Source of the DNA: Candidatus Poribacteria bacterium
GTDB taxonomy: Bacteria; Poribacteria; WGA-4E; WGA-3G
Assembly (NCBI GenBank): GCA_963667805.1
Contig: OY764016.1
Span: 4,952,081-5,016,080 of the forward strand
DNA length: 64,000 nucleotides
Reading direction: 5' to 3'
The notes beneath the pieces were generated by a model, which was given only the letters and a program-made list of their open reading frames with translations, searched no databases and had not been told where the DNA came from. Within the stretch, counting starts at the first letter, position 1. Every line of letters starts with the position of its first letter. A program made the translations under genes and the position numbers. Of the stretch, positions 33,084 to 36,259 are shown in pieces.

Positions 33084-33195
33084 AAGATTCGCTACAACAA
33101 GCGTCATCTCCTGAATTCCCTATTCGGACAATATTTTTAAACCTTTTCCCCAAAAATTCCCCTCTTTATAACCAAATCTAATTGGGAATTTATCC

Positions 33196-34881
33196 GTGCG
33201 ATACAATTCATCGACCTACACAGACCTAACAGATGAAGAACTCATTCAACTCGTGAAAGATGGGGATGAGGCGGCGTTTGCTCAACTCGCCACTCGTCAT
33301 AGTTCCAGAATATGGCAACTGGTTGTTTTAAACTCACGCCAAATCCGCGATGCTGAAGAGATTTTTCAAGATATCTGGGTAGCAGTCTGGGAAAACATCA
33401 AAGGCTTACGCGAAATCAATAGTTTCGGTGCTTGGCTCAGGAAAATAGCATACACCACCTGTAGGAGATACTACACGACCAACTCGCACACAAGGGGTGA
33501 GATCCTTCAGAGCGCAGAGCAACTCGCTGAAACCATTGATCGGGATGTACTTGCCCGGTTTCGAGAGACGGAACTTCGTGCAGCGGTAACGGAAGCCGTA
33601 CATGACCTACCAGAGCGGGTTCGGGCGATCGCGGTGTTGTACTATTTAGAGATGTGGACGATCAAAGAGATTGCGACGGAGCTGGGTTTGGCGGTTGGTA
33701 CCGTCAAGACAAGACTCAGCCAAATTCGGGCACTCCTGCGCGAGGAATTTGGCGTTGAAGAAATTAAGAGGGGAAGAACGATGACACAGAAAAAAGAGGT
33801 ATCCAGACCAGCACGGGACAAAATTAAGGTTTTCGGTGTCGGCGATGCAGGTGGCAATGTGGTCAAACAGATGATTGCCGCCGGTTTGACGGACATCGAA
33901 TTTTACGCTGTGAATACAGATGTGGAGGCACTCCGCACGTGCGATGGGTCAACACAGGTACAGATCGGTGCTGAAACCACGCAAGGACTCGGCGCAAATG
34001 CGAATCCCGAAATCGGCAGGAGGGCAGCCGAGGAAGATTTGGAAACGCTTAACGCTATTGTCACCGACGCTCGTATGGTGTTCGTTACAGCGGGCATGGG
34101 GGGTGGAACAGGAACGGGTGTCGCTCCCTTGCTCGCATCCGTTGCCCGGGAACAGGGTGCTTTAACGATAGGTGTTGTGACCCTTCCACTTGATTCCGAG
34201 GGACAACGCCGCGCTGAACGCGCAGAACTTGGACTCCATGAACTCCGAGAAAACACCGATGCTGTTATCGTAGTCCCGAATCAGCGGCTTCTTGATACTC
34301 TGGACCCAGAACCCTCAACGAGTGAAGCGTTCCGAATGAGCGATGAAACCGTGTCACTCGGCATTAAAAGCGTCTCTGATATTGTTACTGAGTCAGGCGA
34401 GGTTAACGTCAATTTCGCCGATATAGAGGGCATCATGAAGGATGCTGGCACAGTATTGATGGGCATAGGGCAAGCCTCCGGTGAAAATCGAGGGCGAATC
34501 GCTATGGAAAATGCTATCGCCTCACCGTTGCTGGACGGGAAAAGCATCGGGAGCGCAACTGGGTTGATTGTTAATATTAGTGCCCCGCAGGACTTTATGA
34601 TGAATGAATTGGATACGGCGATGAAGGTGCTTCAAGACGAGGCATTTGACGCGCAAATTATCTTTGGGCTGGTCTACAGAGACGACTCTGAACCCAAAGG
34701 CCCAGTTTATGTGACCATCCTTGCTGCGGGGATTGAGTCACAAAGCGGACCCGCTGTCGCACCGTCCACCCAGCAGCGTGGAAGCTCCCTTGGAGGCGAC
34801 ACGCGCGTCTCATCTGAAGTCACCTCTAAATTTGTTCATTTTCCCAACTACAGTGAGTATAACATGCTTAATGAGTCTTGA
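33196..34881 (+). CDS. ECF sigma factor - FtsZ-like GTPase fusion protein
   Basis: aa ~10-186 sigma2 (DAEEIFQDIW..FGAWLRKIA) and sigma4 (LPER..EIATELGLAVGTVKTRL); aa ~208-514 FtsZ fold (IKVFGVG, AVNTD, AGMGGGTGTG, VVPNQRL, NFAD, ASPLL); no stop between the domains. Confidence 0.92.
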   Translation: MRYNSSTYTDLTDEELIQLVKDGDEAAFAQLATRHSSRIWQLVVLNSRQIRDAEEIFQDIWVAVWENIKGLREINSFGAWLRKIAYTTCRRYYTTNSHTRGEILQSAEQLAETIDRDVLARFRETELRAAVTEAVHDLPERVRAIAVLYYLEMWTIKEIATELGLAVGTVKTRLSQIRALLREEFGVEEIKRGRTMTQKKEVSRPARDKIKVFGVGDAGGNVVKQMIAAGLTDIEFYAVNTDVEALRTCDGSTQVQIGAETTQGLGANANPEIGRRAAEEDLETLNAIVTDARMVFVTAGMGGGTGTGVAPLLASVAREQGALTIGVVTLPLDSEGQRRAERAELGLHELRENTDAVIVVPNQRLLDTLDPEPSTSEAFRMSDETVSLGIKSVSDIVTESGEVNVNFADIEGIMKDAGTVLMGIGQASGENRGRIAMENAIASPLLDGKSIGSATGLIVNISAPQDFMMNELDTAMKVLQDEAFDAQIIFGLVYRDDSEPKGPVYVTILAAGIESQSGPAVAPSTQQRGSSLGGDTRVSSEVTSKFVHFPNYSEYNMLNES

Positions 34882-34888
34882 CATAAGA

Positions 34889-36259
34889 CTATTTTGCCAG
34901 ATTCCGTGCCTCTTTGAACTTTTCTTTGGCAAATTGTCCCCAGTCCTTGATTTTTTCGTTGCGGACAGTCGGATCCTTCCAGTCGCTACGTGCCAGTTTC
35001 ATCGCTTCTTCTTCAGTGATCGGCATCTTCGTTAAAGCCGCAATCGCTGCGTCACGTTTCGCCGGGTCCTTACACTTCCGGATCGCCTTCCATGCGTTAA
35101 CGAGATCCTTATGCGAATCAATAATTAAAACACCGAAGAGATCGTTAACGATATTCCATCGGGTCCCCCCTTTATCTGAGTTATATTGGAAGGGGGTTCC
35201 TTCCATCGCAAATGGATTTGGGACAATACAGCGTTCGCCTAATTTATCGTAAAGTGCTGGTAGCACACTCGCGCGGTTTAAACCACCCTTCCATTTGGGT
35301 CCCTCCGAGTCGGTGTCGCGGAGCATCCAAAGTTTCTGTGCGTCTTCCGATAAAACAAACTCAAGAAACTTTTGGGCGACAGACAGATTCGGGGCACCTT
35401 TGAGGATGGCAATAGGATCAGCAGTGACCACCGCGCCATCCGCTGGAACAACATATTGGATTTTGTCCGCACCGACAACAGCAATCTGACCGTATGCATA
35501 AAAATCAATTGCGAGTCCATAAATGACCTGTCCGGCGACGACATCTGTCGGAATAGCGTTCGCACCAGCGGAGAAGCCGCGAACATTACCCCCAAGTTTC
35601 GTCAGGAGTGCGAACCCTTCTTCCCATCCGAGTGTTTGAAGGATAATTTCATACACCATGTGTGCTGAGCCACTCTCTCTTGGGTCGGCAGCACCAATTT
35701 TACCGAGCAGTGCGACATCACCCAAATCCCGCCATGTCTTGACTTTCGGGAGACTGAGCATTTCACGCAGCTCCTCATTGTGCATGATACCGAAACTCGA
35801 TAACGCTGCACCATACCACTGATGTTCGGCATCGTAGAGCGGGATACCTTGAAACGATTGCGTCATCTGTGCAAGTTGTGCTTCGGGGAGTTTGTAGGCA
35901 TTTAACCAACCGTTGTTTGAAAGGCGGAGATAATTGTCAGTGCCACCTCCAAAGAAAATATCGACACTAATACCGTCTGGCACACGCTTAAACTCCGATT
36001 CGATGAATCGATAGTTGGAAGAGGTACCCCCCACATCGCGCCAGTCAGTTTTGACGGTTCTACCGGTTTGTTCCTCATACCATTTCTCGAAATTATTTCC
36101 AAACTCCGTTTCAATCCCCTCTGGATGTGGTGAAATAATGATAAGTTCGTCCTGTGCAAACAGAACAGCAGGTAGTGCCAAAAGACATAATACAATCCCC
36201 CACGTCACAAGATGTCCGCTGCAACGTCCGAGGGGTTTTAAATAGGACATACTTTTCAC
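34889..36259 (-). CDS. ABC transporter substrate-binding protein (Fe3+/AfuA-like cluster)
   Basis: Signal peptide; DIFFGGG, ADPRESGS, AIDFY and DPIAILKGAPN..AQKFLEFVLS motifs. Confidence 0.85.
   Translation of the reverse strand: MKSMSYLKPLGRCSGHLVTWGIVLCLLALPAVLFAQDELIIISPHPEGIETEFGNNFEKWYEEQTGRTVKTDWRDVGGTSSNYRFIESEFKRVPDGISVDIFFGGGTDNYLRLSNNGWLNAYKLPEAQLAQMTQSFQGIPLYDAEHQWYGAALSSFGIMHNEELREMLSLPKVKTWRDLGDVALLGKIGAADPRESGSAHMVYEIILQTLGWEEGFALLTKLGGNVRGFSAGANAIPTDVVAGQVIYGLAIDFYAYGQIAVVGADKIQYVVPADGAVVTADPIAILKGAPNLSVAQKFLEFVLSEDAQKLWMLRDTDSEGPKWKGGLNRASVLPALYDKLGERCIVPNPFAMEGTPFQYNSDKGGTRWNIVNDLFGVLIIDSHKDLVNAWKAIRKCKDPAKRDAAIAALTKMPITEEEAMKLARSDWKDPTVRNEKIKDWGQFAKEKFKEARNLAK

Follow-up and report, generated by a model that had tools for sequence, protein, structure and literature searches.

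Extracytoplasmic function (ECF) sigma factors with a C-terminal extension form a described class, in which sigma2 and sigma4 are the only sigma domains, no anti-sigma gene accompanies the sigma gene and the conserved extension presumably acts as a sensor (PMC8999054). In one of its groups, ECF57, the extension is WD40-like and two conserved cysteines link sigma2 and sigma4 (PMC8999054). Here we describe a gene at positions 33196-34881 (+ strand, stop codon included) of a 64,000-nucleotide stretch of a Candidatus Poribacteria genome (assembly GCA_963667805.1, contig OY764016.1, positions 4,952,081 to 5,016,080 of the forward strand; hereafter the window), whose 561-residue product joins an ECF-type sigma factor to a diverged copy of the division GTPase FtsZ. 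Judged by its domains and relatives, the gene belongs to the known class, and whole copies of division and replication proteins are a newly described cargo of that class. Comparison across genomes firmly supports a functional, family-wide and modular set of ECF-type sigma factors without an anti-sigma partner, which carry FtsZ, DnaE, DnaN or WD40 modules at their C-termini. The window gene shares with the described class the lack of an anti-sigma neighbour and the conservation of its extension, found in 49 of 65 genomes of its genus and in sister genera, as expected from the class assignment made by an earlier annotation (the sequence-only reading). It differs in that an entire essential-enzyme paralogue serves as the extension (320 to 1200 residues in the set), in that extensions are swapped between close sigmas, and in what appears to be an internal translation start of the extension's own. 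Sibling genes with WD40 extensions resemble ECF57; the window gene, with its FtsZ extension and a single invariant cysteine (C89) in a 41-sequence alignment, does not. We found no description of a sigma-FtsZ, sigma-DnaE or sigma-DnaN fusion in the literature, and the accessible main texts of PMC8999054 and PMC7826278 contain no mention of an FtsZ, tubulin or polymerase III extension, in line with the sequence-only reading's view that the FtsZ extension is undescribed.

The window's genome (G000) is a single contig of 5.51 Mb. Pfam and NCBIfam agree with the proposal that one uninterrupted open reading frame (ORF) holds sigma2, sigma4 and a full FtsZ core: Sigma-70 region 2 (PF04542, residues 33-97, 33292-33486) and region 4.2 (PF08281, 6.9e-12, residues 130-181, 33583-33738) are followed by the FtsZ/tubulin GTPase domain (Pfam Tubulin, 8.4e-44, residues 209-369, 33820-34302), with the signature GGGTGTG at 34099-34119 as had been claimed, by the FtsZ C-terminal domain (PF12327, 2.4e-18, residues 418-514, 34447-34737) and by a disordered tail (34738-34878, from model confidence below 50 and alignment) made of a Ser/Pro-rich linker and a stub of the PHP domain of DnaE, all on the + strand. 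Pfam returns Sigma70_r2, r4_2 and Sigma70_ECF and neither region 3 nor region 1, which places the sigma part in the ECF group (group 4), and the protein scores 81.1 bits against the NCBIfam sigma70-ECF model TIGR02937 (cutoff 42.9). Against the ftsZ equivalog TIGR00065 it reaches 329.6 bits (cutoff 295.2), with both Tubulin and FtsZ_C present. The closest solved structures are SigW for the sigma part (5wuq_A, 2.4e-13) and an FtsZ chain for the FtsZ part (1rlu_A, 1.3e-79). No membrane segment was found in the protein, the Kyte-Doolittle maximum mean being 1.22 over 19 residues. The start codon is GTG, with ATG at the same position in relatives, and close homologues are labelled in databases either 'cell division protein FtsZ' or 'sigma-70 family RNA polymerase sigma factor'.

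The fusion departs from the division protein proper, with neither the C-terminal peptide nor a dcw (division and cell wall) or ftsA context. A separate canonical ftsZ, encoding 446 residues, lies directly 3' of ftsA at 3.74 Mb of the genome, which agrees with the claim that the fusion stands outside the dcw cluster. The two FtsZ sequences are 62% identical, and are alike in equivalog score, fold elements and the GGGTGTG signature. The fused copy differs by its N-terminal sigma, its locus, a roughly threefold relaxed constraint and the loss of the C-terminal linker and peptide; the peptide ends the canonical copy as DWEIPAFLR and was not found in the fusion when the two were aligned, as the sequence-only reading had noted. 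Two loops are also changed. The T1 loop reads GVGDAGGN in the window (GVGGAGGN in the canonical copy), and Asn406 (34411-34413, + strand) replaces the first Asp of the T7 loop, giving NVNFAD where the canonical copy and the closest relative, G162, have NVDFAD and so keep the pattern NxDxxD. In E. coli FtsZ this first Asp is required for GTP hydrolysis. The genes flanking the fusion encode TatD, a BPD_transp_2 permease, a solute-binding protein and an M23 peptidase, and a domain search found no anti-sigma gene among these neighbours, again as had been stated.

The same reading took the gene for a simple two-part design, and this part of it fails: alignment with relatives shows that the window gene derives, by truncation, from a sigma-FtsZ-DnaE protein of three parts. 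Long frames of 1349-1439 residues are found in 39 of the 49 genus genomes with the fusion. Their extra part comprises PHP, DNA_pol3_alpha and DNA_pol3_finger in G004 (1363 residues) and these three plus HHH_6 in G008 (1423 residues), and is by homology the alpha subunit of DNA polymerase III, cut before its C-terminal third; the fused DnaE ends at canonical position 803-884. FtsZ and DnaE are joined at about residue 4 of DnaE, where canonical MATEFVHLH becomes TSEFVHLH. The long forms of G004 and G008 are flanked by the same genes as the window fusion. In the window only a 16-residue stub of DnaE is left, with no Pfam PHP match: the last 16 residues of the ORF, FVHFPNYSEYNMLNES (34831-34878), correspond to a decayed PHP N-terminus that reads FVHLHNHSEYSMLDG in relatives. 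Since the convergent solute-binding gene starts 7 nt past the stop codon of the fusion, about 2.4 kb of the DnaE part must have been deleted. DnaE is likewise lost or cut, at differing points, in G154, G160, G092, G174 (an internal deletion), G145 and G130. The longest fusion, in G153 (1743 residues; L048 2056-7284), has a DnaE that reaches canonical position 1176 and is essentially full length, and this genome also keeps a separate dnaE. That the fused DnaE might be the cell's sole polymerase was considered and rejected, since each of the 11 genomes tested has its own full-length dnaE besides.

With a query that crosses the junction, searched against 176 genomes of the phylum, matches that themselves span the junction are confined to the window's family (f1), in the window's genus (g1) and in genera g13, g10 and g12. 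A first survey gave a full-length match in 20 of 24 genus genomes; in the full set of 65 the same fusion occurs in 49, with two further partial matches. At 51-58% identity, the long form extends to g13 (at least 14 genomes) and g12 (one genome). The 64 genomes searched from ten other families showed no fusion and gave weaker matches only, and in the 16 of these outside genomes examined such matches begin at the FtsZ part. Neither was a fusion found in three g1 genomes (G164, G169 and G167). In a tree of 39 FtsZ sequences the sigma-linked domains form one group (support 90/75), nested in the f1 radiation (100/100 against families f2-f4) with an order that follows the genera, and the fused DnaE carries 43 systematic differences from the canonical enzyme that are common to different genera. 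Because of this grouping and these shared substitutions, the simplest history would be a single ancient duplication and fusion with vertical inheritance; a single origin of the fused FtsZ has moderate support. The fusion loci occupy stable chromosomal positions with conserved synteny, and are not defence islands. No stop or frameshift between the domains was seen in contigs that bridge the junction. A contig from sequencing run X1, possibly the source sample, covers 33659-34934 with 0 differences, and one from run X2, of another study, is gapless over 33559-33886. A contig from an RNA library, derived from a relative with ~92% identity, spans 33550-34806 and then continues; two RNA-library runs yielded contigs over the FtsZ part at ~92% identity, which come from a relative, may reflect DNA carry-over and are not taken as expression.

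Searching the sigma domain alone against a library of 1.8 billion representatives returned 23 representatives at E<=1e-30, after which identity falls to 35%. The inventory of what this sigma clade carries was drawn from 18 members read, together with P0116, P0127 and loci from the genus genomes, and comprises FtsZ-DnaE, FtsZ with a different tail, the FtsZ GTPase half, DnaE, DnaN, WD40 propellers and no cargo at all. FtsZ is thus a real extension, as the sequence-only reading held, yet only one of several exchangeable cargos. DnaE is joined directly to the sigma, with no FtsZ, in P0126, and P0139 (188 residues) is a sigma without cargo; sibling genes with WD40 have a sigma 55% identical to the window's. 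The window's genome itself holds a 405-residue paralogue (3,685,193-3,686,410, - strand; L003 1480-2697) of sigma and the FtsZ GTPase half, lacking FtsZ_C, of a class that is conserved across g1 and part of g13. Members with DnaN include P0122, a 576-residue protein in G007 with all three clamp domains and a 469-residue protein in G016 without domain I; close-sigma DnaN fusions occur in 9 of the 65 genus genomes, plus G016. The G016 gene stands directly after the same permease gene as the window fusion, and its linker appears to retain the first ~20 residues of the FtsZ linker; this is a cargo swap in place. The G007 gene was rejected as a further case at the window's locus, since it sits among MacB-type permease genes. 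The cargo begins at its own N-terminus. In the C-terminal tail, P0132 (one of a pair, of which one has FtsZ and the other does not) and P0134 share the motif DQIP..V...IDN.

DnaN has also been joined to a more distant sigma. A second gene of the window's genome (3,690,728-3,692,461, - strand; L127 7728-9461) encodes 576 residues with a complete three-domain DnaN behind an ECF-type sigma, here sigma', that is 30% identical to the window's, and this sigma'-DnaN gene is found in at least 44 of the 65 genus genomes, G000 included. This gene, the 405-residue paralogue and the DnaE origin of the fusion's tail had all escaped the sequence-only reading. The DnaN of the close-sigma fusions was considered as a copy of the sigma'-DnaN cargo and this was discarded, as it is 50% identical to that cargo and 57% to canonical dnaN. 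Free DnaN paralogues also occur: one in G000 (2,200,110-2,201,216) is 73% identical to the canonical clamp, and tandem pairs of 371-372 residues are found in G002, G009, G015, G019, G141, G155, G165 and G173.

At the sigma/FtsZ junction the window gene has a Shine-Dalgarno (SD)-like sequence, AGAGGGGA (33767-33774), followed by an in-frame ATG (33781-33783, Met196), an element recognised from the orthologue alignment (33767-33783, + strand). An SD-like purine run 5-16 nt before the in-frame junction ATG is present in 29 of 29 orthologues, compared with 67 of 780 other in-frame ATGs of the same genes, counts that are not phylogenetically independent. The residues encoded at the SD vary (RG, RE, GG, RR, GE, KG) while the nucleotides are constant. 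Of 37 arginine codons just upstream of the junction ATG, 35 are AGR, where the rest of these genes uses AGR for 24%. The same SD-plus-ATG feature recurs in seven of eight 405-residue genes examined (no junction was found in L087), with the window genome's own copy among the carriers, in one of two WD40 genes and in the DnaN fusions, where AAGGAGG precedes DnaN's own Met. It is therefore likely, from this codon and spacing evidence, that cargo is also made alone from the internal start. The canonical dnaN leader, read in frame, resembles the fusion linkers, suggesting that cargo genes were captured with their own ribosome-binding sites.

Upstream of the window gene lies a promoter-like sequence (33136-33168, + strand), TTTAAACC-N18-CTCTTTA, with a -35-like box containing AAAC at 33136-33143, a -10-like box at 33162-33168 and a T-rich run upstream. 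An AAC-type -35 box and a short -10 box in a sigma gene's own promoter are a mark of autoregulation in the ECF family. Between it and the start codon, alignment of upstream regions reveals a conserved 5' leader element, AAATCTAATTGGGAAT (AAATCTAATTGGG(C)), at 33174-33189 (+ strand), present in one to three tandem copies depending on the genome; one X2 contig has a 14-nt insertion behind 33184. The promoter-like motif stands 27-60 nt before the fusion's start codon in g1, g13, g10 and g12, in intergenic DNA that is otherwise unalignable. It precedes most clade members examined, including the 405-residue gene of G000 and other 405-residue, DnaN and WD40 members. In 26 genus genomes the strict motif has 59 matches, all but one with the same spacing, and the reversed control has 1; the window site is the top weight-matrix match in its genome (67.5, control maximum 9.5). 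The strict motif is absent from the fusion-free g1 genomes G164 and G169 and from both outgroup genomes searched, and the third such g1 genome, G167, has one site, before a truncated sigma fragment. Within g13, G102 has three strict sites and G132 one; G130, G118 and G127 have none, and a one-base variant lies upstream of the fusion gene of G130. Looser patterns in G000 gave 190 matches against ~122 expected from shuffling and were dropped, and a match with a 16-nt spacer in G016 (L126), ahead of an unrelated ORF, was taken as chance.

The genes behind the motif suggest what it controls. It precedes a 421-residue MacB_PCD+FtsX permease, in strict form, in G002, G021 and G023 (g1) and in G102 (g13), and a ~499-residue ABC-2 permease in G005, G009 (twice), G021 and G023. 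Strict sites in G000 are limited to the clade's own genes and one orphan site; the weight matrix adds a single variant at 5,107,230, ahead of the orthologue of the same 421-residue MacB-type permease (score 37, control maximum 9.5). MacB-type permease genes stand on both sides of the close-sigma DnaN gene of G007, and in G000 the sigma'-DnaN gene belongs to a same-strand run of a MacB-type permease, DUF5694, an ATP-binding cassette (ABC) exporter, sigma'-DnaN and two ABC-2 permeases, after which come the orphan motif copy and the 405-residue sigma-FtsZ gene. The output genes that can be read from the motif are thus the sigma genes themselves and ABC-exporter permeases, and no division or replication gene was found behind it. 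It also stands ahead of a secreted WD40 protein and of another class of long ECF sigma genes; in G018 and G024 an ECF class with BNR/Sortilin-like propeller extensions has the same promoter motif, and about 45 ECF-like sigma matches are found in G000, many in open frames of 900-1050 residues. The orphan copy (3,687,458-3,687,490, - strand) has no downstream ORF on its strand, and an opposite-strand DUF5615/PIN-like gene separates it from the 405-residue gene, which suggests an insertion at this point. In L123 (G014 3,743,400-3,746,610) a 371-residue ORF, possibly transposase-like, lies between a motif copy and the place of the relatives' sigma gene. From co-occurrence and position we infer that the sigma reads this motif and that it therefore autoregulates and switches on exporters, with a regulon that, taken from the motif, would be small.

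Median pairwise ratios of non-synonymous to synonymous substitution rates (dN/dS), quoted for the fused genes from g1 and similar in g13, indicate that all parts of the protein are under purifying selection. The values are 0.09 for the sigma part, which is the most constrained segment after PHP (0.06), 0.10 for the polymerase core and 0.40 for the second linker; the FtsZ N and C domains both give 0.18 (canonical 0.05 and 0.06, respectively), which puts the evolution of FtsZ in the fusion at roughly three times the canonical pace. Over DnaE core residues 1-730 the fused value is 0.085 and the canonical one 0.063. The fused FtsZ of g1 keeps the T4 signature, has the T1 loop GVG(D/N)AGGN and mostly keeps T7, and in DnaE the PDIDID motif is not among the 43 systematically changed columns, with 417 of 645 canonical-invariant columns retained. 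The reading frame is open across all 29 orthologues and no stops occur in junction-spanning matches. An AlphaFold2 (AF2) model of the window protein (mean predicted local distance difference test score, pLDDT, 73; predicted template modelling score, pTM, 0.55) has well-folded sigma2, sigma4 and FtsZ modules, with pLDDT of ~77-90 for the helices of residues 13-94 and ~90-95 for FtsZ, falling below 50 in the linker (188-205) and the tail (513-561).

We favour a one-component sigma factor whose sensor is a copy of an essential and commonly targeted protein, and which drives its own gene and exporters, and would give this reading a probability of about 0.4. The diverged FtsZ copy would be the built-in sensor, joined in the ancestor and most relatives by a C-terminally truncated DnaE. 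The cargo would keep the sigma inactive by self-association, its partner being either free cargo translated from the internal start or the cell's canonical copy. Release would follow when some molecule or protein bound to or disturbed FtsZ (or DnaE, or DnaN), and the freed sigma would recognise the promoter-like motif and drive its own gene and the exporter genes. The spare essential protein would thus be a bait that detects attack, and export the response; the window copy would have lost its DnaE bait and kept its FtsZ bait. We prefer this reading because the cargos are unrelated save in being essential, self-associating and known natural-product targets, because they are without the parts that dock to the native machines, because they turn over and vanish like accessory genes, and because the sole inferred targets and neighbours are exporters. 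Tentatively, the set may be taken further, as a family of integrated-target sigmas in which the sensor would be a swapped-in copy of an essential protein (FtsZ, the DnaE polymerase core or the DnaN clamp) attacked by antibiotics, toxins or phage proteins, fused and free forms would come from one mRNA, and attack would free the sigma to amplify itself and switch on ABC exporters.

Several observations count against sensing of this kind. The window fusion's own neighbours are the permease and solute-binding protein of a sugar-type ABC importer, with no exporters, and the motif-based regulon in G000 amounts to four sites, one of them the orphan. The motif might be recognised by another of the ~45 ECF-like sigmas, part of the internal start signal may be a relic of cargo capture, and none of the four sigma fusions tested matched a defence model of PADLOC-DB 2.0 (0 families). 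In the described class an extension is expected to touch sigma2, sigma4 or the linker between them; the AF2 model has no confident contact between sigma and FtsZ (pTM 0.55), and control of the sigma in cis is for that reason put forward as a proposal. Finally, the largely kept nucleotide-binding and catalytic motifs and the constrained DnaE could equally mean an enzyme as a bait.

A doubtful but serious alternative is that the fusion co-assembles with the Z-ring, and its DnaN and DnaE sisters with the replisome, so as to sequester or deliver the sigma and couple transcription to division or replication. This extends the proposal of the sequence-only reading, in which GTP binding or co-polymerisation with the Z-ring would sequester or release the sigma. 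FtsZ and DnaN do self-associate, the GTP-binding signature is kept, as is the T7 loop in most orthologues, all three clamp domains are present in the G007 sigma-DnaN and G000 sigma'-DnaN proteins, and phages offer precedents, in the T4 gp45-gp55 pair (PMC2988020, PMC7892883) and in Mu's use of the beta clamp (PMC12867686). The cargos, however, are missing what such assembly would be expected to use: FtsZ has no C-terminal peptide, DnaE stops at 803-884, the G016 DnaN has no domain I and the 405-residue genes carry half an FtsZ. Work on E. coli places protein docking in the native machines at the FtsZ C-terminal peptide and the DnaE C-terminal region. Coupling to the cell cycle also sits poorly with the DnaE part having disappeared or been shortened, at varying points, in no fewer than seven lineages, with WD40 propellers on sibling sigmas and with a motif that stands before no division or replication gene, and since three g1 genomes have no fusion at all, an accessory function fits better than a core cell-cycle circuit.

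We consider it unlikely that the cargo is instead the effector, with the sigma as an address that brings a GTPase and polymerase core to RNA polymerase or promoters, or with the fusion as a device that mainly expresses free FtsZ', alone or with DnaE', from the internal start under an autoregulated promoter. The start signals kept in all 29 orthologues would suit such a reading, as would a fused DnaE core nearly as constrained as the canonical one (0.085 and 0.063), with PDIDID outside its systematically changed columns and 417 of 645 invariant columns kept, and an AF2 model of independent modules on flexible linkers. Set against this, the fused frame is open in every orthologue examined, which argues that the fused product matters; several lineages, the window's included, do without the DnaE part, and it is the sigma that is the most constrained segment after PHP.

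It is also improbable that the cargo is an integrated decoy, bound by phage inhibitors or toxins in place of the true target so that the sigma starts a defence programme. The modular cargo of essential proteins beside generic protein-binding WD40 sensors, its turnover and repeated loss, and the threefold faster evolution of the fused FtsZ would all be in keeping with a decoy, and an integrated decoy has been proposed for a bacterial NLR-related (nucleotide-binding leucine-rich repeat) protein (PMC11702601). Yet the loci are stable and syntenic and lie outside defence islands, none of the four fusions matched a PADLOC model, and no recognisable defence effector was found beside the genes or behind the motif, where the inferred targets are transporters. 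An assembly artefact, or a dying and functionless chimera of neighbouring genes, is close to refuted and nearly excluded: the window copy has lost its DnaE part, has Asn at a T7-loop Asp position and ends in a disordered, fast-evolving tail (dN/dS 0.26-0.44), but the same junction recurs in the 49 genus genomes and in other genera, is bridged without indels by contigs of two studies, and separates segments that are constrained between the window and the short forms of G154 and G012 (dN/dS 0.06-0.08 for sigma, 0.13-0.22 for FtsZ).

Comparison with systems outside the ECF class places the favoured reading and its alternatives in context. In T4 late transcription the sliding clamp gp45 acts with the sigma-like gp55 and with gp33 (PMC2988020, PMC7892883), and phage Mu enlists the beta clamp (PMC12867686). 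The likeness lies in a sigma linked to a clamp, of which the sigma-DnaN sisters would be a covalent version; the T4 link is non-covalent, uses a loaded clamp and belongs to a phage. The present proteins are encoded as gene fusions by a cell's genome, the one in the window carries FtsZ in place of a clamp, and no homology is claimed. If co-assembly were true, the fusions would wire division or replication directly to transcription, as a cellular counterpart of the clamp-sigma pairing in T4.

BlaR1 and MecR1 are sensors homologous to drug targets that serve resistance regulators. PbpP, a penicillin-binding protein, senses beta-lactams for the ECF factor sigma-P (PMC8092216), and natural products act on DnaN and DnaE1 (PMC10817943, PMC8922275). 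BlaR1, MecR1 and PbpP are like our proposal in using a copy of a drug target as the sensor for a dedicated resistance regulator. They differ in that their sensors are separate membrane proteins and act through anti-sigma proteolysis, where the target copy in our case belongs to the sigma protein and is cytoplasmic. Built-in sensors are an established feature of some sigma factors, but we found none described that consists of whole copies of division or replication proteins; whichever reading is true, sigma-FtsZ-DnaE is an unusual architecture, conserved under purifying selection across one bacterial family, to which this sponge-associated bacterium belongs. If the bait reading holds, it would be a new bacterial way to sense attack on essential machinery, and inhibitors of FtsZ, DnaE and DnaN, each an antibiotic target of current interest, would have natural reporters in the fused paralogues. 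The integrated decoys of plant NLRs, and the proposal made for bNACHT11 (PMC11702601), share with the fusions a built-in mimic of an attacked host protein, and differ in that the output here is a sigma factor and not an NLR or STAND (signal transduction ATPases with numerous domains) ATPase. Should the sigmas indeed carry integrated targets, they would be a bacterial, transcription-coupled counterpart of plant integrated decoys, and a natural catalogue of the essential proteins that are chemically attacked inside sponges.

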